Shown piece after piece: positions 40,966 to 56,402 of a stretch of DNA of 64,000 nt; positions within the stretch are counted from its first letter, which is position 1, and each line of letters begins with the position of its first letter. The stretch lies in assembly GCA_937888365.1 (NCBI GenBank), contig CALBFA010000101.1, positions 54,035-118,034 on the forward strand, in the 5' to 3' direction. The notes beneath the pieces are model-generated. The model ran no database searches, was not told the DNA's origin, and was given only the letters and a program-made list of their open reading frames with translations. The position numbers and the translations under genes are program-made. Source of the DNA: an uncultured Fidelibacterota bacterium (GTDB lineage Bacteria; Fidelibacterota; UBA8477; JABMPR01).

Positions 40966-41127
40966 CTCAACGGTAAATGTAATAAAAGTCACTTCGATTA
41001 GTGGAATCAAGCAAAGACGGATTTTTAGCCCTACATTAATCCTTGAATTCTCACATATTCAGTGGAAATAATTAAAGGCATCAGCATTTTTACAGAGGAT
41101 TAAGCAAATGAGAAAGATGGAATAATG

Positions 41128-41154
41128 AAAAAAAGCCCCATATGATAATGAGGC
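41128..41154 (-). terminator. Rho-independent terminator after the GLUG-repeat gene
   Basis: On the minus strand, hairpin GCCTCAT-TATCAT-ATGGGGC with one G-U pair, followed by T7. Confidence 0.55.
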
Positions 41155-41183
41155 CTGATAATCTTTTATTAATGCTACAAATA

Positions 41184-43004
41184 TTACTTAATTAATGCAA
41201 TCTCTCGTGTTTGTACATTATTACCCATGCGAATACTTAAGAAGTAGAGACCCGAGCTTAAATTCGCTGTGTTAACGATATGGCTATATTCGCCTGGACT
41301 CATTTCTTGGTCAAAAATAAGTTGAACTTGTCGACCCGTAATGTCATAAATAGACGCTGTAACAAGCATCGTTTCATTGAGTGTAAATGGAAGTGTAAAC
41401 GCTGCGTTGAAAGGGTTTGGATAGGTATGACCCAATGCAAATTCCTTACTTACAAACGTTTGGTCGATAGGTAATGTATTATCGGCACCTGATTGCCAAG
41501 ATAAAATCATATAACCATCATTCACCGTAGCAAGCTGATCAGCATCCCAATAATTATTAGTGCCATTGGCCGTTTCGCTTACAAAATCCCATCCAGCCGC
41601 AAGAAATGTCAAATAATCTTTCATTTCAGCTGTTGTTTTTCCTGTACCGCCGTCACTTGTCATCTTACCTGATGTCTCAACATCCCAGAAAGAATAACGC
41701 GTCGTTGTGGTTGAAAAATTACTACCACCAACGAGACCACCTACGCGAGAACTTTGCCCACTGACAGCGCCAGTACTATAGCAATAATTTATATTTGATG
41801 ATGTATAATGACGCCCGATAAAGCCGCCTACATAGTCGTTTCCTGTTACAGAACCTGTGCTGTAGGAATTATTGACCGTTGAATATGAATTATATCCGAC
41901 TAAACCGCCGATATTATTGCCACCGGCAACAACATTGCCGCTGTTAAATGATTTGCTTGTTGTAGAAGCTGAACTATAGCCGATAAGTCCACCTACAAAG
42001 TTCATCCCGGTTACATTACGTGAACTTGAACAATTCGAAAGATCCCCACCGCCTTCACTATTACCGACGAGTCCCCCTATATAATCACCACCGACTAGGA
42101 TTCCTGAACTTGAGCAAGCAGTTAAAGTACCATTATTATCATTGAGACCCACAATACCACCGACATAATTACTATTACCTGTTACAGTATTGTTGCTGTA
42201 ACTATTTTGAATCGTTGAGCCAGAATAGTTGAGTCCTACTAAACCACCCACATAATCACCACTTCCTAATACTGAGCCACTCGCATGCGAATAACTAATG
42301 ACGGATGAATAACTGTTGTCACCCGCTAGCCCACCAATATAACGACCGCTTCCGTTAACATACCCCGAGCTCAACGAACTATTTATAGTGGATGATGAAT
42401 TATAACCAACCAGTCCTCCGATATAGTCATTCCCGAGGATCACTCCATAGCAATGAGAATGATCGATTGTCGATGAAGCATAATTTCGACCCACCAATCC
42501 ACCAACATAATTATGCCCCGTAACGTTGATGTTCATGAGTACGACATCCTCAATTGTTGCACCACTTAAATATCCAAAAAAACCAACGAAATTGCTTGAA
42601 GCTCTATTAATTGTCACGTCTAGAATGGTATCGTTTTGCCCGTAATAGAAACCTGTAAAAAGGGTACTGCCGTTTCCTAGGGGCGCAAATCCCTCATTCA
42701 ATCCAGTATCTGTTGCATCATTAGGATCATTATATTTATCATTATCACTATTGTCATCAATGTCATCCCAAAATTGAGTAATCGATGCATCGATAGTCCC
42801 CGATTGTTTATATGCTTTATCCCAAGCACTTGGATTTTGAGTAAGCCAGCTTAAATGGCCCATTGTCGAGATTATGTATGGATTGCTGACCGCATCATAT
42901 GCTGAATTTACATCTTCTAAAGATGGTTGAACCGCAATAACTTGCGCTTGAACGAGGTTCGATAAGCTCATAATTAAAATCAATAACAGAATCATTCTTT
43001 TCAT
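41184..43004 (-). CDS. GLUG-motif beta-helical repeat protein with a T9SS C-terminal sorting domain
   Basis: Signal peptide MKRMILLLILIMSLSNLVQA. About ten ~19-aa repeats of the Y-[IV]-G-G-L-[VA]-G form. The C-terminal YPNPFNAAFTLPF...GLYFLSIRMG is a type A T9SS C-terminal domain. Confidence 0.65.
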   Translation of the reverse strand: MKRMILLLILIMSLSNLVQAQVIAVQPSLEDVNSAYDAVSNPYIISTMGHLSWLTQNPSAWDKAYKQSGTIDASITQFWDDIDDNSDNDKYNDPNDATDTGLNEGFAPLGNGSTLFTGFYYGQNDTILDVTINRASSNFVGFFGYLSGATIEDVVLMNINVTGHNYVGGLVGRNYASSTIDHSHCYGVILGNDYIGGLVGYNSSSTINSSLSSGYVNGSGRYIGGLAGDNSYSSVISYSHASGSVLGSGDYVGGLVGLNYSGSTIQNSYSNNTVTGNSNYVGGIVGLNDNNGTLTACSSSGILVGGDYIGGLVGNSEGGGDLSNCSSSRNVTGMNFVGGLIGYSSASTTSKSFNSGNVVAGGNNIGGLVGYNSYSTVNNSYSTGSVTGNDYVGGFIGRHYTSSNINYCYSTGAVSGQSSRVGGLVGGSNFSTTTTRYSFWDVETSGKMTSDGGTGKTTAEMKDYLTFLAAGWDFVSETANGTNNYWDADQLATVNDGYMILSWQSGADNTLPIDQTFVSKEFALGHTYPNPFNAAFTLPFTLNETMLVTASIYDITGRQVQLIFDQEMSPGEYSHIVNTANLSSGLYFLSIRMGNNVQTREIALIK

Positions 43005-43145
43005 GTTTGTTCCTCAAATAATTTAATATCTATTGCACTTCATTGTGGGCACAAAGTAAACGACTCCTCGTTGCTGCCAATATCTTTAAGATTTTTTGAG
43101 ATAAAGAAATTATAACAAAATATCTGACCATTTAGCATTGAGCTT
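43005..43145 (-). promoter_or_regulatory. Promoter/5'UTR module, copy B: extended -10 plus the conserved leader upstream of the GLUG gene
   Basis: Minus-strand TGTTATAAT lies at plus coordinates 43109-43117. Near-identical to copy A. Confidence 0.5.
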
Positions 43146-43373
43146 TATAATAGATGTAACTCAAATCACGCAAATACGCGAACAATAGTATCTCAATTTA
43201 CATTTTTCATAATCAATTCTATTGTATAAAAGGACTTCAACGAAATCAATATTTTTGTAAATATAAGGTAGCTTGTCTAGTCTTGCAGAATGCGTTTTTA
43301 ACTTTATGTTTGCGGGCAATGCAAAGGCAAACTCCTAAAGCAAAATCATTCGTCACTATTGACCGTTTAAACC

Positions 43374-47008: not shown

Positions 47009-48091
47009 ATGAATAGAATACACTTAGCAGTTGATGCCATGGGCGGCGATTTCGCTCCCAAAGTTATCATAGAGGGCGTCATTAATTCCCTTAGAAAAGC
47101 GAATCTAGAATATCAAAATGATTTAAGCGTGACGCTGGTTGGCGATGAAGCAAAAATTCTCTCCTACCTTGAAAAGCACTCTGATATTCGAAAACAAATA
47201 AAAATTCACCACACGGATCAAGCTATTCCAATGGATGCGAAACCAAAAGATGCTATTATCAAATTCCCAAAAGCATCTATGATTGAAGCCGCTAAATTGG
47301 TCGCAAATAAAGAAGCGGATGCACTCATTTCCGCTGGAAATACAGGCGCTTTAGTATTGTCATCAGCGCAACAAATTCCGCGCATTAAAGGAGTGCATCG
47401 TACAGCTCTAGCTGCCGTTTATCCTACCAAAAATGAACTTAAACGAAGAGATCGTTTTTCGTTGATACTTGACGTCGGTGCAAATGTTTTTGTTGAAAGC
47501 GAACATCTCGTTCATTTTGCCCTCATGGGCGCTGCTTATGCAAAAGAGATTAAAAACATTGAATTACCTACCGTAGCTCTATTAAATATGGGAGCGGAAT
47601 CGAATAAAGGTGGTGAGCGTTACACAAATGCTTATGAAATCTTATCCTCCCTTCCGGACTTAAATTTCATCGGGAATATCGAAGGTAATGATTTGATGCG
47701 GGGTGTTGCAGATGTTGTTGTCACCGAAGGTTTTATTGGAAATATTGCCATAAAAACCATGGAAGGCGCCGCAGAAACGGTGATGGGACTGGGTAAATAC
47801 GCATTTAAGAAAAACTTTATTTGGAAAATGGGACTTATCTTTCTTTCCTCAGGGATTAAAGGTTTAAAGCGCATCACAGACTATCAAGAATACGGTGGTG
47901 CTCCGATTCTTGGCCTCGAACGGCTCGTTTTAAAATGTCATGGGAAATCAACTTCCTTAGCCATTGAAAACGCCCTTACGCTTACTATTAAAGCTGTTCG
48001 TGATGATTTAACCGGCAATATGCAACGTGCGATTTCAGCATTTGAAAATGAATTTACAAGACCAGAATTTGATAAGGTTCCAGGATATTGA
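47009..48091 (+). CDS. plsX: Phosphate acyltransferase PlsX
   Basis: N-terminus RIHLAVDAMGGDFAP and the PlsX fold. Confidence 0.85.
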   Translation: MNRIHLAVDAMGGDFAPKVIIEGVINSLRKANLEYQNDLSVTLVGDEAKILSYLEKHSDIRKQIKIHHTDQAIPMDAKPKDAIIKFPKASMIEAAKLVANKEADALISAGNTGALVLSSAQQIPRIKGVHRTALAAVYPTKNELKRRDRFSLILDVGANVFVESEHLVHFALMGAAYAKEIKNIELPTVALLNMGAESNKGGERYTNAYEILSSLPDLNFIGNIEGNDLMRGVADVVVTEGFIGNIAIKTMEGAAETVMGLGKYAFKKNFIWKMGLIFLSSGIKGLKRITDYQEYGGAPILGLERLVLKCHGKSTSLAIENALTLTIKAVRDDLTGNMQRAISAFENEFTRPEFDKVPGY

Positions 48092-48097
48092 CGTAAT

Positions 48098-48535
48098 ATG
48101 AAAAACCAAATCAACATTAATCGCGTCGCCATATTAGTAGTTCTGTTGTTGTGTACAAGTCCCTTTGCTTTTGGACAGGCTCTTGATGATCATGATTTGA
48201 TTTTACAAACGCAAGACATCCTTCGACACAATGGCATTAATATTGGCAATACGGGTATCCGTATTCAAAATTTAAATGATAAACGAAGCTTAGTCATAAA
48301 TTTAAGTGGACGACGAACGATCATTGTCGATATGGTTTACAATACGTTTTATAATGTTGGCGGGGTTATACAAAAGGCAAAAGAGCCTATTGATCAAATT
48401 GTTATCAATGCATCTGCTCAATACAAAGGAACAGAAACATACTATTTTCAAGCATTGGCGAAACATGTTGAACAACTCTATAATAGGACCATATCAGCCG
48501 ATGAATTCATCAATAATTGTTTAATAATAAGATAG
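48098..48535 (+). CDS. Secreted hypothetical protein (cassette copy 1, gene A)
   Basis: Signal peptide. Paralog of 48861-49301 at roughly 35-40% identity, with shared blocks VINLSGRRTIIVD and IVINASAQYKGTETYYF. Confidence 0.55.
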   Translation: MKNQININRVAILVVLLLCTSPFAFGQALDDHDLILQTQDILRHNGINIGNTGIRIQNLNDKRSLVINLSGRRTIIVDMVYNTFYNVGGVIQKAKEPIDQIVINASAQYKGTETYYFQALAKHVEQLYNRTISADEFINNCLIIR

Positions 48536-48547
48536 GAGAGACATTTT

Positions 48548-48841
48548 ATGAACGGAACACTTAGGAAATTAAGTTTAACTTTGTTTTTAATCCCAAGCTT
48601 TCTTTTAGCTGCTTCACCCTTTGAAACATCTATTTGGATGCGCTATTTAGAAGGAATTGGATGGGCCATTGCGGCTTCAATCGGTTTTTCAGTTGGAGTT
48701 GCGATAGCGATTAAAGTCTTTGATTGGTTCTCAAGCGATATTGATGAGTGGGAAGAAATTTCGAAAGGCAATTGGAGCGTCGCGATGATTCACGTAGCAC
48801 TCATTGTCATGATAGGTTTACTTGTATTTAAAGTCATCTAA
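48548..48841 (+). CDS. Small two-TM membrane protein, DUF350-like (cassette copy 1, gene B)
   Basis: 97 aa with the motif KVFDWFSSDIDEWEEISKGNWSVAMIHVALIVMIGLLV. About 90% identical to 49314-49607. Confidence 0.6.
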   Translation: MNGTLRKLSLTLFLIPSFLLAASPFETSIWMRYLEGIGWAIAASIGFSVGVAIAIKVFDWFSSDIDEWEEISKGNWSVAMIHVALIVMIGLLVFKVI

Positions 48842-48860
48842 TTAACAACATGGGACATTT

Positions 48861-49301
48861 ATGAAATCTTCAAAATTAAGTATTTTTCTAATTTCTTTAT
48901 CGGTTTTTAGCTTTTTGTTGCCAAATGTTGCATTAGGACAAGAATACGATGACTACCAAATTATTACACATTCAAAAGAAGCACTCCAAAAACTAGGGCG
49001 CAGTATTGATGCTCCAAAAATGGAGATTCAAACATCGGCTGAAAAGGGACGTGTTTTAGTTATAAATGTAACAGGTAGACGTACTTTATTGATGGAAATA
49101 GCCTATAAAGCGTTTTTAGCAGGTGCTTCCGTTATTAAAGATGCTAAAAATCCTATAAACGAAATTGTCGTTATTGCATCTGCACAATATAAAAATGTAG
49201 AAACATTCTACTTTTCGTCTACGGCAGCTTGCTCAATTGATTTATTTAATCGTCTTATATCAATTGAAAAATTCACATCAGATTGTATTAATATTAACTA
49301 A
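48861..49301 (+). CDS. Secreted hypothetical protein (cassette copy 2, gene A)
   Basis: Signal peptide. Diverged paralog of 48098-48535. Confidence 0.55.
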   Translation: MKSSKLSIFLISLSVFSFLLPNVALGQEYDDYQIITHSKEALQKLGRSIDAPKMEIQTSAEKGRVLVINVTGRRTLLMEIAYKAFLAGASVIKDAKNPINEIVVIASAQYKNVETFYFSSTAACSIDLFNRLISIEKFTSDCININ

Positions 49302-49313
49302 TAAAGGAATATT

Positions 49314-49607
49314 ATGAAAATTCTAACAAAGAAAATGGTCGCTTTATTATTTTTCCTACCAACATTTTTGATGGCTGCTTCTCCCTTTGAGAAATCAATT
49401 TGGGTCAGCTATTTAGAGGGTATCGGCTGGGCTATTGCTGCTTCAATTGGTTTTTCGATTGGTGTCGCCATTGCTATCAAGGTTTTTGATTGGTTCTCCT
49501 CAGATATCGATGAATGGGAAGAAATTAAAAAAGGGAATTGGAGTGTTGCCATGATTCATGTAGCACTTATCGTTATGATTGGATTACTTGTTTACAAAGT
49601 AATTTAA
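49314..49607 (+). CDS. Small two-TM membrane protein, DUF350-like (cassette copy 2, gene B)
   Basis: 97 aa, about 90% amino-acid identity to 48548-48841. Most nucleotide differences are synonymous. Confidence 0.6.
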   Translation: MKILTKKMVALLFFLPTFLMAASPFEKSIWVSYLEGIGWAIAASIGFSIGVAIAIKVFDWFSSDIDEWEEIKKGNWSVAMIHVALIVMIGLLVYKVI

Positions 49608-49680
49608 CTGAGATTTTTCACCTTTTTTCGTATTGCCAAGGGGATAACACTCGTATATCTTCGCGGGCTTTCAAAAAAGT

Positions 49681-49754
49681 GGCAGGGTAGCTCAGTCGGT
49701 TAGAGCGCAGGCTTCATAAGTCTGATGTCGGCGGTTCAAGTCCGCCCCCCGCTA
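49681..49754 (+). tRNA. tRNA with a CAU anticodon (tRNA-Met elongator, or tRNA-Ile2 if lysidine-modified). CCA is not encoded.
   Basis: D-arm GCTCAGTCGGTTAGAGC, anticodon stem-loop CAGGC-TTCATAA-GTCTG, T-arm GGCGG-TTCAAGT-CCGCC, acceptor GGCAGGG/CCCCGCT with an A4-C69 mismatch, discriminator A. Confidence 0.85.
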
Positions 49755-49758
49755 CAAA

Positions 49759-49788
49759 GCCACCTCAGAAATGAGGTGGCTTTTTTTT
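49759..49788 (+). terminator. Rho-independent terminator after the tRNA
   Basis: Hairpin GCCACCTCA-GAAA-TGAGGTGGC followed by T8. Confidence 0.85.
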
Positions 49789-50152: not shown

Positions 50153-51502
50153 ATGATTTATCGAATTATTAAATTTTTTGCTATAATTGGACTCAATCTT
50201 TTCTTTAAAAAAATTGTCGTTTCAGGTAAAGGACGTTTACCATTGTTTGGGCCCGTACTCCTCGCCGCCAACCATCCAAATACCCTAATGGATCCGATGC
50301 TTGTGTCTTACACTTCTTCCAGAAATCCTCATGTTTTAGCGAAAAGTACATTATTTGACAATAATGTTTTACGCTGGATTTTTACGCGTTTACCCATCAT
50401 CCCCGTTTATCGAAAAGCAGACGTCGGTAACAATACGTCAAAAAATGAAATGACGTTTGAAGCGTGTTACGATTTCTTGAGCAAAGGCAAATCAATCATG
50501 ATCTTCCCCGAAGGTATCAGCCAAATGGATCGACAACTGCATCCTATTAAAACGGGAATAACGCGCATAGGCTTAGGTGCAGAATTGGCTCATAATTTTG
50601 AATTAGGTGTCACAATCATGCCTATAGGCATCAACTATTCTGATCCGACATCATTCTATAGCAATGTGTATGTTAAGTATGGCAATCCCATCAAACTTCA
50701 AGATTATAGGCAAGCATACTATAAAGACGAAATCGCAACGGTGAATGCCATCACGGAGAAAATTAGATCTGACTTAGAATATTTGACCGCGACGGTGCAA
50801 AAAAGCGAGGTAACTCAAGCCGTTGAAGCATTAGAAATAATCTACAAAAAAGAGCTAATGGTCGATGAATCCCTTTTATTTCGAACGATTAAGCAAGATT
50901 TTCTTGTCACAAAAGGTATTATTGATGCTGTACATTGGTTGTACGACAATAACCCTATTCAATTCAATGCGATCTTTGAACAGCTTCAAAATTACATGGA
51001 TCAATTAAAACTTTATCATTTAGAAGACGAGTTCCTTTCAGATTCCCATACAGGCATTGGTGCATACAAAATTTCGAGGGCCATATTCCAAGGTTTTATC
51101 GGTTTGCCACTTTTTCTATTTGGCTTCTTAACAAGTGGTATCCCCTATCAACTTCCTAGACTCATTTTAAATAGAATCAATATAGAAATCGAATATTACT
51201 CAACCGTTAAATTTCTCGTTGGTATGGTTGCATATTTGATAATTTATAGTTTAGAAATTTGGCTTGTTGCCGCCTATTTTCAATCACCATTTTGGACAAT
51301 TATGTTTATTTTTCTCTTATTACCCTCGGGTAAGTACTCACTTTTTTTTAAGGACAAATTAAAAGAGTATTGGCGATATTTTCAATTTCTTGTTTTACGA
51401 AAGCAACAACCCAATCTCGTAATACAACTTAAAACACGTCGTAATGATATCTTAGAAATCCTTGATGATCTGAAACATATCTATTTGAATCAAAACGATT
51501 GA
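50153..51502 (+). CDS. Lysophospholipid acyltransferase family protein (PlsC-like 1-acyl-sn-glycerol-3-phosphate acyltransferase) with a C-terminal membrane extension
   Basis: HxxxxD motif in AANHPNTLMDP and the FPEGIS motif. C-terminal TM helices. Confidence 0.7.
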   Translation: MIYRIIKFFAIIGLNLFFKKIVVSGKGRLPLFGPVLLAANHPNTLMDPMLVSYTSSRNPHVLAKSTLFDNNVLRWIFTRLPIIPVYRKADVGNNTSKNEMTFEACYDFLSKGKSIMIFPEGISQMDRQLHPIKTGITRIGLGAELAHNFELGVTIMPIGINYSDPTSFYSNVYVKYGNPIKLQDYRQAYYKDEIATVNAITEKIRSDLEYLTATVQKSEVTQAVEALEIIYKKELMVDESLLFRTIKQDFLVTKGIIDAVHWLYDNNPIQFNAIFEQLQNYMDQLKLYHLEDEFLSDSHTGIGAYKISRAIFQGFIGLPLFLFGFLTSGIPYQLPRLILNRINIEIEYYSTVKFLVGMVAYLIIYSLEIWLVAAYFQSPFWTIMFIFLLLPSGKYSLFFKDKLKEYWRYFQFLVLRKQQPNLVIQLKTRRNDILEILDDLKHIYLNQND

Positions 51503-51565: not shown

Positions 51566-52621
51566 ATGGAACAATTAATTTCGGTACTCACAAAATATTT
51601 TAATTTTATGATTAACACGCCTCTTCTTATGAGCTTAGTCATTTTTCTTTTTACCGTCATTGCAGGTAAGTTTATACAAACTTTGATCAGTCGAGTATTT
51701 ACAAAACTAGCAAAAGACAGGCGAAGCGCTTGGAATTCTGAAATGGTAAGGGGTATTAACCAATCCATCTATTTATCAATTTTAGGTGCTGGATTTTTCT
51801 TTGCATTTTCTCAACTAACATTACCTGAATTAGCACATTTTTTTATAAACGGAATAATCAAAACTGTACTTATTATTACATGGGCTAAAACAAGTCAACT
51901 AATTATATATGAAACCTTAAAATGGTTTTCAAAACGTAAAAAACGTGGAATTGTAATTCAACCGTCAACGCTACCTTTTTTTGAAAATATTGCGTTTATT
52001 TTAATTTGGGGCGGGACCATTTATTTTACGCTTATTTCATGGGATGTTGATTTAACCGCATGGATGGCTTCTGCTGGTATTATTGGTATCGCATTAGGTT
52101 TTGCAGCTAAAGATAGTTTGGCAAATTTCTTTGCTGGTATTTTTATCATTGCCGATAGCCCCTATAAAATTGGGGATTTTATTATACTCGATGGTTCTGA
52201 ACGCGGTAAAGTTACGGAAATTGGTATTCGTTCTACACGCATGCTGACACCAGATGATGTCGAAATTACCATACCCAATTCAATTATTGGGAATTCAAAA
52301 ATTATAAATATTACGGGTGGTCCTTACGAAAAGAGTCGCGTCAAAGTGCAAGTTGGTGTTTCCTATAGCTCCGATATTGATTTAGTGCGAGAAATCCTTT
52401 ATAAAGTTGGTGCAGATTCGCCTCTTGCCGATCATGTGATTGAACCTAAAGTTCGTTTTATGGAATTTGGTGATTCATCTCTTAATTTCGAATTATGGGT
52501 CTGGGCGCAACCCGAGGATTTACTTCACGTTAAAGACGATTTAAATAGTGCCATCTTCAAAGCTTTTAAACAGCATAATATCACTATTCCGTTTCCTCAA
52601 GTTGTGGTGCACAAAGCCTAA
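51566..52621 (+). CDS. Mechanosensitive ion channel, MscS family
   Basis: Three TM helices plus the MscS beta-domain GIALGFAAKDSLANFFAGIFIIADSPYKIGDFI. Confidence 0.8.
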   Translation: MEQLISVLTKYFNFMINTPLLMSLVIFLFTVIAGKFIQTLISRVFTKLAKDRRSAWNSEMVRGINQSIYLSILGAGFFFAFSQLTLPELAHFFINGIIKTVLIITWAKTSQLIIYETLKWFSKRKKRGIVIQPSTLPFFENIAFILIWGGTIYFTLISWDVDLTAWMASAGIIGIALGFAAKDSLANFFAGIFIIADSPYKIGDFIILDGSERGKVTEIGIRSTRMLTPDDVEITIPNSIIGNSKIINITGGPYEKSRVKVQVGVSYSSDIDLVREILYKVGADSPLADHVIEPKVRFMEFGDSSLNFELWVWAQPEDLLHVKDDLNSAIFKAFKQHNITIPFPQVVVHKA

Positions 52622-52779: not shown

Positions 52780-52923
52780 GGCGGTGCAATGATGGAAGCT
52801 CGTGAAAATCGAGCACAGTCGCGCTACTGTAACCGAGGACAAACTCAACAAAGGCCACTATGATACGATGGGAAGGCGTTGAGATTTGGTTGATTCGGGA
52901 GTCAGGATACTTCATTACCGCCC
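52780..52923 (+). ncRNA. Candidate cobalamin (AdoCbl) riboswitch upstream of a TonB-dependent receptor
   Basis: Ordered conserved elements: GGTG-cAA near the 5' end, the hairpin GCTCG-TGAAAAT-CGAGC, CGCGCTACTGTAAC (consensus CCCGCCACTGTAA), GCCACT, GGGAAGGC, and the B12-box-like GAGTCAGGATAC. Closed by the 5' GGCGGT and 3' ACCGCC. Position matches the classic btuB-type arrangement. Confidence 0.55.
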
Positions 52924-53227
52924 TTAAATTCATAAACCTTCGCGAAAAAGGCAAAGAATTATCCTTCTCTTCCCACAACATTCCAATCAAACTCTCCTAA
53001 GGCTTTTCGTATTTTTTCTAAGTTTCCATACTGTCATTTGGGCGATTCCGACCATCTCAGGGCAAATTGTCGACGCTAATAACAATGGCATTTCCTTTGT
53101 CCAAATTCAAAATCTCAAAACAAACGTTTGGGATACATCCGATATAAATGGGTATTTTAGTGTAAGCGGAAATATTTCTTTAGGAGATGTCTTTAAGCTG
53201 TCAAGAATTGGCACTATCACTGATACG

Positions 53228-55039
53228 GTGCTTATTCAAAATTTCAATTATCAAATCTGGCGTTTAAATTTCGATGTCATTAGGCTTAATGATATTACGG
53301 TGGATGCAGACTATCAGCAGCAGGAATTACGAAGTCCGAAATACCTGATTTCAAATCATGACGAACCTGTTTCAATCCGATCCTCGACTTTTTTTAAGCA
53401 ATTACCTGGCGTAACGATTAAACGCTATGGTGGACCTGCAGGCATTAGTCAAATAAGCTCAGACGGCGGCTCAGCTTCTCAAACCAAGATTCTTCTGAAC
53501 GGCTTTGATTTGACATCCGCTCAAAATGGTAGCACGGATATTTCCCAATTACCGCCTCAACTTTTTAATACAATTTCTTTTGATTTAAGCCAAAGACAAA
53601 AACAATCTGGTATGAGTGATGGCGTAATCGGCATCCAAACTGATTTTGATAAACGATATATTTCTATGACGGCTGGGAGCTTTGGTGAAAGGCAAATCTC
53701 TGGCGCATGGAATTTGAATACCGAAAATAAAAAGCTCTTTTTTGCGGGAGGACACTCAGAATATGAGGGAAATTATCCTTCGATTTGGCGAGATATTGAG
53801 ACATCAAGACGAAATAATAACTTTAGGCAGGATTACGTTTTTTCCCAAGGGCAACTCCTTATTCCAAACCTCGCCTATTTACGCATCATTGGCCTAGAAT
53901 CGCAACAAAATCGAGGTGTAGCAGGACAATCATGGAATCCCGATACGGTTTCCAGGCGCTCTGATAAATTATCCCTGTTGGGATTTCAATCAGCAATGAT
54001 GTTTAAAAAGGGCAGCCTTTTTGGGCAACTCATGCGACGGAGTTCGGAAGAATATTTTGATCAAAAGTTGGGTATGCTAATTCGCCACTACCAACACAAT
54101 AGTGAAACAAACCTTATTCATCTCCGAGGGTCAATTGAGTATAATGCTATTAAATTTATTGCATCGAGAGAAGATCGCTTTGAATCGTTATCGTCGGACG
54201 CCGTAGAGAATAATGTCCATCGTCGCATTACTCAAATGACGGCGAATCTAATAGTTTCTCTTGCTTTAGGGTTTCGTGGAACGGCAAATATTCATTCCCA
54301 TCAAGAAAACTTAAAATCTCAACTTACACATTATGGCTATTCAATATCCTGGGAATCAAAGCTCCCCTATTTGCCCGAAATTTTTCTAAGTCAAGAGTCG
54401 TATTACCGCATCCCAACACTAAACGACCTGTACTGGCAACCAGGCGGTAATCCTGCCCTATTGGCAGAGACAACACAGTCACACCTGGCTTCATTAAATT
54501 GGATATTTCCCTCTACTCATTTTCGAATTTTGGCTTATGGAAAAATCAGCCAAAATTTAATTCAATGGATGCCGCAAAACGCCTATTGGCGACCCGTCAA
54601 TATTCTGGAAGCCAAACGCTCCGGTATCAAAGCATCGGGGCATTTTCAAATACATTCAAATTTAGAATTCAACATGCATTACGGATGGCATCATTCAGAA
54701 AGTTTGAGTGGCGATTTTCATAATGGCAAAGCCTTACGATTTGCACCTAATCAAACGGGAATGGGCAATTTCCGGGCATCATGGCATCGCCTAAATGCAA
54801 CATTCCAAGCCGATTACATCGCATCTCGCATCAGTATGTATGGCTACCCTGAAGATATCATTTTGCCTGAAGCGACATTCTATTCCCTTGGAATCGGTAC
54901 AACTTTGCAGCCCATTTCCATCCATCTAAAAATAGATAATATTTCAGATGTTTATTACGAAACAATTTTAGGCTACCCAGAACCACCTCGATCTTTTTCT
55001 ATAAATATTCTCTATAATTTTAGGAACCCTGAAGAATAA
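53228..55039 (+). CDS. TonB-dependent receptor-like outer-membrane protein (BtuB-like by context). The N-terminus probably extends upstream: the frame is open from 52928.
   Basis: Plug domain (LPGVTIKRYGGPAGISQISSDGGSASQTKILLNGFDL) and a beta-barrel. Upstream, in the same frame, lie a carboxypeptidase-regulatory-like domain (SGQIVDANNNGISFVQIQ...NGYFSVSG) and a hydrophobic signal-like segment, with no canonical start codon. Confidence 0.6.
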   Translation: MLIQNFNYQIWRLNFDVIRLNDITVDADYQQQELRSPKYLISNHDEPVSIRSSTFFKQLPGVTIKRYGGPAGISQISSDGGSASQTKILLNGFDLTSAQNGSTDISQLPPQLFNTISFDLSQRQKQSGMSDGVIGIQTDFDKRYISMTAGSFGERQISGAWNLNTENKKLFFAGGHSEYEGNYPSIWRDIETSRRNNNFRQDYVFSQGQLLIPNLAYLRIIGLESQQNRGVAGQSWNPDTVSRRSDKLSLLGFQSAMMFKKGSLFGQLMRRSSEEYFDQKLGMLIRHYQHNSETNLIHLRGSIEYNAIKFIASREDRFESLSSDAVENNVHRRITQMTANLIVSLALGFRGTANIHSHQENLKSQLTHYGYSISWESKLPYLPEIFLSQESYYRIPTLNDLYWQPGGNPALLAETTQSHLASLNWIFPSTHFRILAYGKISQNLIQWMPQNAYWRPVNILEAKRSGIKASGHFQIHSNLEFNMHYGWHHSESLSGDFHNGKALRFAPNQTGMGNFRASWHRLNATFQADYIASRISMYGYPEDIILPEATFYSLGIGTTLQPISIHLKIDNISDVYYETILGYPEPPRSFSINILYNFRNPEE

Positions 55040-55094
55040 TGATAAAATATTTCATAGTCATAAGCACACCTCATCAACCTTTGAAAGGGAAATA

Positions 55095-56402
55095 ATGAAA
55101 CACATTCTACTCCTATTAATACTCACTTTGTTGGCATTTGCTCAAGACGGTCTCTTCGTCTTATGCGAAGGCAATTATGGCTCGACGAATGCGTCTCTCT
55201 GGTCTCTGGACATAAATAATTCTTCGGCTTCGATTCCAGCGTTTATAGGATTTGATGCCTCTCAGATGGGCGACACAGGACAATCCATGAAAATCGTCGA
55301 TTCTAAAATGTACGTTTGTATGAATAACAGCCACAGTATCGAAATTTTTAGTGTCACTGATAACGCCAATCCAACTCATGTCCATACAATTGACGTTTCT
55401 GGTGTGTCACCTCGATACTTAGCGATATTGGACAATTCCGCCTATGTTACATCATGGAATTTGAACGCTATTCTGAAGATTAATCTTGATAATTATCAGA
55501 TCGAGGACACGATAAACGTAAACGGAATGCCTGAAGATATTTTGACTTATGACGGAAAACTCTATGTGTCGCTAACGATGAATGCAGATTGGTCCAGTTC
55601 AAATCAAGTATTGGAATTAGCAAATACCAACGGTGAATGGTCGACTCTAAATAGTTATAATGTAATACCTGGGCCAGGTCGTTTGCTTATTCATGATGAC
55701 AATCTTTACATTGCCAGCACGTATTATAATGATGCATGGGAAACGTTTGCAGGGACCTCTCGAATCAATCTTCTAACAGGTGATGTTCTCGCTGTTGATT
55801 ACGGCCTTAGTTATAGCTATGGAGGCGATCTAGCCATCATGAATAATAGTATATACCGTTCTACGTTCACTGGCGCTGCTATGATGGATGATAGTCTTCA
55901 ACTTGTATCAGATGGTGAAATCAGTGATATGGAAAATGTCTATATGTTCTCAATTATTAATGATAATTTCTATTTTGGTCTTACAGACTATGTGGCTCCT
56001 GATAATATCCGTGTTTATAATGCCGATGGCGAATTTATTAATAATTTTGTTGTGGGAGCGCTACCGACTGAAATTGTATTAAGTGTGGCATCTAATGCCG
56101 TAGCAGCGACACCACTGCAGGCAAGAGAATTTGAAATTAATGGAAATTATCCGAATCCATTTAATCCAAATACGATGATTGATTTTGAAGTGGAAAAAGA
56201 GACACGTTTATCAGCTCATATAATTGATATTAATGGACATATCATCAGTGAATATCCCACTCAAACTTTCGCAGCGGGGCATTATAGTATCAACTGGAAT
56301 GGTCTCACTTTTGACGGAGAACCTCTACCAAGTGGGATTTACTTTGTAAAAATATTTACCAATAATAGCTCCGATATTTTGAAAATAACCTTATTAAGAT
56401 AA
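55095..56402 (+). CDS. Beta-propeller (YVTN-type repeat) protein with a T9SS C-terminal sorting domain
   Basis: Signal peptide MKHILLLLILTLLAFA. C-terminal NGNYPNPFNPNTMIDF...SGIYFVKIF is a T9SS C-terminal domain. Confidence 0.6.
   Translation: MKHILLLLILTLLAFAQDGLFVLCEGNYGSTNASLWSLDINNSSASIPAFIGFDASQMGDTGQSMKIVDSKMYVCMNNSHSIEIFSVTDNANPTHVHTIDVSGVSPRYLAILDNSAYVTSWNLNAILKINLDNYQIEDTINVNGMPEDILTYDGKLYVSLTMNADWSSSNQVLELANTNGEWSTLNSYNVIPGPGRLLIHDDNLYIASTYYNDAWETFAGTSRINLLTGDVLAVDYGLSYSYGGDLAIMNNSIYRSTFTGAAMMDDSLQLVSDGEISDMENVYMFSIINDNFYFGLTDYVAPDNIRVYNADGEFINNFVVGALPTEIVLSVASNAVAATPLQAREFEINGNYPNPFNPNTMIDFEVEKETRLSAHIIDINGHIISEYPTQTFAAGHYSINWNGLTFDGEPLPSGIYFVKIFTNNSSDILKITLLR

Follow-up and report, generated by a model that had tools for sequence, protein, structure and literature searches.

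The locus considered here raises the question of why a cassette of two small genes should stand twice in tandem beside a tRNA gene, with one of the encoded proteins strongly diverged between the copies and the other hardly changed. The genome belongs to the Marinimicrobia (SAR406/Fidelibacterota), abundant and uncultured ocean bacteria. The first gene of the cassette (A) encodes a secreted protein and the second (B) a membrane protein related to DUF350/YjfL, a widespread membrane-protein family for which, to our knowledge, no function is known. A first-pass annotation of the sequence had interpreted the arrangement as a module of a variable and a conserved partner, of a toxin-immunity-like or ligand-receptor-like kind, linked to the tRNA gene.

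Structure of the duplicated locus

The window, which is the whole 64-kb stretch of DNA that was analysed, has the following features in and around the repeat:

47009..48091, + strand: plsX (phosphate acyltransferase; PF02504), upstream neighbour, outside the repeat
48098..48535, + strand: A1, open reading frame of 145 amino acids, secreted protein with a predicted Sec signal peptide cleaved at about AFG/Q
48548..48841, + strand: B1, open reading frame of 97 amino acids, single-repeat DUF350 membrane protein with the acidic loop DIDEWEEISKGN
48861..49301, + strand: A2, open reading frame of 146 amino acids, secreted paralogue of A1
49314..49607, + strand: B2, open reading frame of 97 amino acids, single-repeat DUF350 membrane protein, paralogue of B1
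49681..49755, + strand: tRNA-Met with anticodon CAU (ARAGORN, Rfam)
49756..49783, + strand: strong intrinsic-terminator-like hairpin with a 12 bp stem and a T-run (terminator scan)

All four reading frames of the two cassettes described by the first-pass annotation were recovered, with the same 12 nt between A and B in each, and both ARAGORN and Rfam place the tRNA-Met(CAU) just downstream as it had claimed. The start codon of A1 lies 6 nt past the stop of plsX, and 19 nt separate B1 from A2. At the DNA level the tandem repeat has a period of 766 nt and ends 73 nt before the tRNA gene; it is best preserved across 261 nt of B (78% identity), and an 84-nt block of A is 71% identical. Searches with the A and B family profiles found no further copy of either gene in the window. 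The same arrangement is found in contigs of four independent metagenome assemblies that differ by 0-1 nt from pepA to plsC, and the locus is therefore not an assembly artefact.

A single-repeat DUF350 membrane protein

The first-pass annotation had assigned the membrane protein to the DUF350 type, and this assignment holds. With the Pfam gathering cut-off of 26 bits as the threshold for membership of PF03994, B2 passes with 27.3 bits (profile positions 57-132 of 133) and B1, which is 84% identical to B2, falls 1.1 bits short with 24.9 bits (profile positions 71-131 of 133). PF03994 is also present in nearly all of the at least 120 listed relatives of B, and B1 scores 161 bits against the profile of the B family itself. 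The B profile gave no meaningful match among PDB sequences.

Three segments of B are hydrophobic: the first, at the N-terminus, is a signal peptide or anchor that has an AxA-type site (LMA/AS), and the other two are TM helices. The earlier description as a two-TM protein was thus right about the two helices and overlooked the N-terminal segment. The claimed identity of about 90% between B1 and B2 similarly applies to the mature two-TM part (92%) and not to the full length, where it is 80% (84% by BLASTP, 77/92). The motif DEWEEI-x-KGNWSVAMIHVAL was found in both copies as claimed. An AF2 model of B2, of moderate confidence (pLDDT 73.5), predicts helices at residues 2-20, 29-63, 66-72 and 76-96.

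The mature protein is arranged as a short N-tail (PFExSIW), TM1, an invariant acidic loop (FDWxSxDIxEWEEIxKGN) and TM2. TM1 is rich in small residues and has a conserved ladder of G38, A43, G46, G50 and A54. Altogether 29 columns of the B alignment are invariant, including F58, D59, W60, S62, D64, I65, E67, W68, E69, E70, I71, K73, G74 and N75 in the loop. The family comprises at least 595 sequence clusters in two main forms, one of 97 amino acids that has both a signal peptide and the motif NWSVA, and one of 77 amino acids that lacks the signal peptide. Within the loci kept, no genome among about 79 sampled had both types.

Compared with DUF350/UPF0719 (PF03994; YjfL in E. coli), B has the same signature of a TM helix, an acidic loop and a TM helix with 'GN-x-x-VA'. 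It differs in that YjfL is built from two repeats with 4 TM helices in about 130 amino acids, whereas B has one repeat with 2 TM helices, corresponding to the second half of the 133-position model. The cleavable-type signal peptide of the 97-amino acid form is a further difference from YjfL.

A secreted family without annotation

A1 and A2 are 38% identical (BLASTP, E 2e-32), which agrees with the 35-40% given for the secreted partners in the first-pass annotation. A word-index search for homologues with A1 only retrieved A1 itself and one relative, and a profile built from the open reading frames upstream of B was needed to find the family. A1 and A2 score 119 and 113 bits against the A-family profile. 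A search with this profile rendered 762 proteins, none of which is named or has a Pfam domain, and an exhaustive HMM search for A among 1.84 billion cluster representatives gave only 117 matches.

The family is equally poor in matches to described domains. No Pfam domain was found above the cut-off in A1, A2 and 62 family members, there was no match above the cut-off in NCBIfam and none in PADLOC, and the A profile found nothing meaningful among PDB sequences. A1 is labelled as 'calcineurin-like phosphoesterase' by JGI; this label was rejected because the YmdB/TIGR00282 similarity behind it stays below threshold, at 13.5 bits (cut-off 27) and 18.1 bits (cut-off 254). There are also longer proteins with an A domain, 289-309 amino acids in length (P0278, P0295, P0314, P0329 and P0347). 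Their C-terminal extension has no Pfam match, and the contigs are too short to give a genomic context.

The mature A protein has about 120 residues and bears cysteines. Modelled alone, with an alignment (A4) built from distant members of the subfamily, A1 is confidently predicted by AF2 to be a generic alpha/beta sandwich (pLDDT 86.4, pTM 0.77). The model has the signal-peptide helix, a helix at 22-44, strands at 54-59 and 62-71 and a helix at 73-92, followed in the C-terminal half by strands at 100-107 and 114-120 and helices at 121-128 and 134-141. A fold search with the model returned only generic sandwiches. A can be set beside small periplasmic alpha/beta domains, namely the ring-building motif (PrgK/EscJ/FliF, SpoIIIAH) and BON (OsmY, BonA, DolP). 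According to the alignment, a C-terminal pair of cysteines is kept in A2 (C124 and C142), in the A1 orthologue P0002 and in the plsX-linked orthologues, whereas A1 has lost one of the two.

Conservation of the pair in Marinimicrobia

Comparison with other genomes shows that Marinimicrobia conserve the A-B operon, normally in a single copy. Of 80 loci from other Marinimicrobia genomes, 77 have A immediately upstream of B, and all 80 have B only once per locus, within about ±6 kb. Two of the three loci without an upstream A are at contig edges, and the third (L053) truly has B without a detectable A. Both genes are thus ordinary single-copy conserved genes in relatives, which is the observation that the first-pass annotation had itself named as speaking against its interpretation.

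In the clade with the 97-amino acid form of B the gene order is Amidase_3-pepA-plsX-A-B. The plsX gene is found upstream of A-B in 22 relatives (L001-L010, L012-L022) and also in L085-L087 and L093, and the genes downstream of A-B vary among these plsX-linked loci. Loci of the clade with the 77-amino acid form have A-B in other housekeeping contexts, for example hutU-hutI-A-B, and in a third group the pair is flanked by the genes of a Crp-type regulator and of a Por_Secre_tail protein. Because the contexts differ in this way among the subfamilies, the conserved unit is the A-B pair itself. The linkage to plsX is restricted to the 97-amino acid clade.

The tRNA gene does not belong to this unit. 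None of the 22 syntenic relatives that were checked has a tRNA-Met beside A-B, and since the adjacency is not kept, the proposed link between the module and the tRNA falls away.

A tRNA-linked genomic island was also considered as an origin of the repeat and rejected. The cassettes are on the 5' side of the tRNA, a repeat of the tRNA end was looked for and not found, there is no integrase in the flanks, and the GC content of the cassettes (0.34-0.37) is near the window mean (0.38). Syntenic loci in relatives, moreover, exist without the tRNA.

Selection and unequal rates of change

By the Nei-Gojobori method dN amounts to 0.58 in the A pair and 0.155 in the B pair, and to 0.056 when only the mature part of B is counted. 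For A this corresponds to a dN/dS of about 0.36, a poorly determined value because dS is near-saturated. These counts place both genes under purifying selection, which is extremely strong in B. The first-pass annotation had drawn the same conclusion for the membrane partner, which a pS (the proportion of synonymous sites differing) of 0.75 beside such low dN values bears out. Its statement that most nucleotide differences in B are synonymous is clearly true of the mature part, with 38.2 such differences and 9.8 non-synonymous ones, and less clearly so of the whole gene (46.9 against 32.1).

The faster change of A is a property of the whole family. Pairwise identity over 2775 locus pairs averages 29% in A and 71% in B, the two values being correlated (Spearman 0.84), and the mean column identity of the A family is 26%. 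The asymmetric divergence that had been noticed between the two cassettes is therefore real but not peculiar to the duplicate, and it is explained by A changing faster than B throughout the family.

Whether the A copies have gone beyond this family baseline is the most serious of the alternative questions. In the case of neofunctionalisation the two A proteins would have diverged further than the family does, towards new ligands or partners in a ligand-receptor-like manner, with B held constant; this would be a benign version of the idea put forward in the first-pass annotation. The pair in the window has an A identity of 39.5% at a B identity of 91.9%, the lowest among the 99 locus pairs of the 97-amino acid clade with a B identity of 90-95% (mean A identity 62.6%, range 39.5-87.5%), but the comparison is a coarse one because B barely changes and its identity scale is compressed. 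The cysteine missing from A1 and kept by A2, P0002 and the orthologues would also fit, as would the duplication of A alone in another lineage, where L039 has the order A-A-B. Measured against orthologues, however, A1 (27.5%) and A2 (23.7%) are roughly where they would be expected at a B identity of 81%. The dN/dS of A gives no sign of positive selection, and four independent assemblies of the population that are at most 1 nt apart leave no visible diversification. Some extra divergence of A after the duplication is possible, and neofunctionalisation as the explanation of the locus is unlikely.

Comparison with toxin-immunity cassettes

The idea of a polymorphic effector, in which a variable secreted A would be neutralised by a conserved membrane immunity protein B and the module amplified at a tRNA hotspot, is based on a real likeness. 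As in toxin-immunity and polymorphic toxin cassettes, a secreted and fast-evolving protein precedes a small membrane protein in a module that is repeated in tandem; the module also adjoins a tRNA gene. Unlike such cassettes, A-B has no toxin domain, no linkage to a secretion system or to mobile elements and no strain variability, and it occurs as a syntenic single-copy pair across the phylum. No toxin or defence domain was found above the cut-off in A1, A2 and 62 family members with Pfam, NCBIfam and PADLOC. A is itself under purifying selection, the region is essentially invariant among assemblies (0-1 nt), and the asymmetry between the partners is found in the family as a whole. The toxin-immunity explanation is thus largely refuted and has very little probability left, and the variable-partner interpretation of the first-pass annotation does not survive the comparison with relatives. 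The A-B pair looks like cell-envelope housekeeping instead.

Age and origin of the duplication

In a neighbour-joining tree that comprises about 90 sequences of the family, B1 and B2 come out as sisters. A1 and A2 match one another (E about 1e-25) more closely than they match any orthologue (E 1e-12 to 1e-18) except the A1 orthologue P0002. The orthologue P0002 comes from a relative (L093) in which PlsX is 90% identical and plsX is followed by an A1-like gene and the start of a B1-like gene; the contig stops before any second cassette could be visible. P0002 is 59% identical to A1, compared with 38% between A1 and A2, and in phmmer it matches A1 with E 2e-54 and A2 with E 1.5e-29. Because P0002 is so much closer to A1 than to A2, the split between A1 and A2 is older than the speciation from the L093 lineage.

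The synonymous sites lead to the same estimate of age. The pS is 0.66 for the A pair and that of the B pair is still higher, both at or near saturation, which makes the duplication old and rules out recent gene conversion. The likely account of the locus, in evolutionary and architectural terms, is therefore that a two-gene operon was duplicated in tandem long ago, an event so far found only in this lineage.

The deep synonymous divergence would be equally compatible with a foreign origin of the second cassette, acquired from another Marinimicrobia lineage and inserted beside the resident one, and the P0019/P0005 clade, which comes nearest after these two in the B tree, does have another genomic context. 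Such an acquisition is highly improbable given that B1 and B2 are sisters, that A1 and A2 are mutually closest, that the two cassettes agree in register in both spacing and gene order, and that the GC content of the cassettes is close to that of the window. Homogenisation of the B segment only by recent gene conversion, instead of selection, would account for the nucleotide repeat being best kept over B, but it has next to no probability, since about 75% of the synonymous sites differ between B1 and B2 when conversion would erase such differences, the mature proteins differ by a dN of only 0.056, no long tract of identical nucleotides is shared, and B is conserved to an equal degree between species. 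The B copies have not been homogenised since the duplication.

Possible role of the A-B pair

With the old duplication of a conserved operon as the preferred account, the function of the unit can be approached from its parts. B might act as a dimer or a higher oligomer, the dimer mimicking the two-repeat, 4-TM architecture of YjfL; this is proposed because B has one DUF350 repeat against two in YjfL and because of the ladder of small residues in TM1. With the signal peptide of the 97-amino acid form, the conserved PFExSIW tail would lie on the periplasmic side and the acidic loop on the cytoplasmic side, and the periplasmic, cysteine-bearing A may dock from the periplasm onto B, which would sit in the inner membrane. 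The complex could then serve envelope or membrane homeostasis, a role suggested by the neighbouring genes (the cell-wall amidase and plsX) and by the published PspA/polyamine envelope-stress context of DUF350. After the duplication B1 and B2 may pair as heterodimers, served by A partners that have become specialised.

The specific mechanism of docking and dimerisation is tentative and on balance doubtful. If the topology holds, the loop is cytoplasmic and a periplasmic partner is left with no more than about 13 residues at the N-terminus of B and 3 at its C-terminus, which speaks against docking. The locus L053, with B and no detectable A, and the restriction of the plsX linkage to one clade also speak against the account. 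The most far-reaching version, an undescribed envelope module specific to Marinimicrobia in which B must dimerise and has a dedicated A, and in which B1 and B2 here form an obligate heterodimer served by two A subunits that have each specialised, is improbable. If it were true, the locus would be a separate-gene snapshot of the step that led to the fused two-repeat YjfL proteins, and it would offer a way into the function of DUF350.

Relation to described DUF350 operons

In the literature only comparative-genomic mentions of DUF350/YjfL were found. The protein is known only from such comparisons as a membrane protein in PspA/polyamine envelope-stress operons, and the operon partners described are PspA/CesT, polyamine-synthase, DUF4178, DUF1190 and DUF2491 (PMC11237479). 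The partner in A-B differs from these in being one dedicated secreted protein. Within about 6-8 kb of A-B there were no PspA or polyamine genes, the neighbours being Amidase_3, pepA and plsX or hutU and hutI.

What is new here is a previously undescribed, phylum-wide association between a minimal DUF350 protein and an unannotated family of secreted proteins, together with one lineage that has kept both duplicated copies. Few small proteins of the phylum are as conserved as the minimal single-repeat protein, and it is almost always preceded by one secreted family; with these two results the pair offers a concrete and testable two-component system for the study of DUF350. The tandem duplication is ordinary genome evolution, useful mainly as evidence that selection keeps both genes as a unit, and the remaining interest is modest.

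Transcription

The intergenic gaps from plsX through B2 are 6-19 nt, and a terminator scan of the + strand from pepA to 49756 gave no strong site, with one weak 6-bp stem inside A1. With such short gaps and no strong terminator-like site before 49756, the A-B cassettes are probably co-transcribed with pepA and plsX. The tRNA is possibly part of the same transcript. A promoter-like match at 49633-49661 could drive the tRNA separately.

Sequence variation in the A family

The secreted paralogues of the duplicated pair differ at a conserved C-terminal Cys...Cys pair. The first cysteine of this pair is found in A2, in the A1 orthologue from a close relative (P0002) and in the orthologues located beside plsX in other relatives, while A1 itself has a histidine at this position (residue ~123), which leaves Cys141 of A1 without a partner. 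A1 has thereby recently lost what is probably a disulfide.

One public source (JGI) labels A1 (48098-48535) as a calcineurin-like phosphoesterase. The label derives from sub-threshold similarity to YmdB/TIGR00282, at 13.5 bits (cut-off 27) and 18.1 bits (cut-off 254), and seems to be a mis-annotation.

The A domain is also part of longer proteins. Five metagenome proteins of 289-309 amino acids (P0278, P0295, P0314, P0329 and P0347) combine it with a conserved C-terminal extension of ~150 amino acids, which carries the motif ...DxxFENLxxxRIAxExKxNP... and has no Pfam match. Another homologue, P0341, has an N-terminal extension of ~80 residues with repeated D/N-rich segments before the A domain; this extension was judged by eye to be dockerin-like and has no match in Pfam.

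Arrangement of A and B genes in relatives

Duplication of A without B was found in a Marinimicrobia genome (JAOZSR01, L039:4797-6231), where the gene order is A-A-B with two 147-amino-acid A copies followed by a single DUF350 gene of the 77-amino-acid type. Only one relative (L053:5534-5964) has no detectable A upstream of B. A thioredoxin gene is there followed by ~430 nucleotides and then by B, and no plus-strand ORF of at least 60 amino acids is listed in the intervening stretch, which may be a decayed A gene.

Genomic neighbourhood

The following features are located downstream of the duplicated pair:

49681-49755, plus strand: tRNA with anticodon CAU, called as Met by ARAGORN
50153-51502, plus strand: PlsC-type acyltransferase of 449 amino acids (PF01553), just downstream of the tRNA
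51566-52621: MscS-type channel, after the acyltransferase
52794-52910, plus strand: cobalamin riboswitch (Rfam RF00174, 73.4 bits)
~53131-54942: ORF of 603 amino acids with a weak Plug-domain match, called in same-species contigs

The anticodon stem of this tRNA does not have the three G-C pairs that initiator tRNAs typically carry, and on its sequence the tRNA is predicted to be either an elongator tRNA-Met or of the tRNA-Ile2 (lysidine) type.

The PlsC-type acyltransferase, which has a long and hydrophobic C-terminal extension, forms a local cluster of membrane and lipid genes together with the MscS-type channel and the upstream plsX. Synteny of the downstream part is not kept in relatives. 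The cobalamin riboswitch is situated upstream of the 603-amino-acid ORF, which probably encodes a TonB-dependent receptor under B12 regulation.

Same-species contigs (L081 and L082) show that the flanks at 41000-43300 and 55000-56300 of the window hold two Por_Secre_tail (T9SS-sorted) proteins as well as genes resembling those of type II secretion and type IV pili, for T2SSE ATPase and N_methyl pilin.
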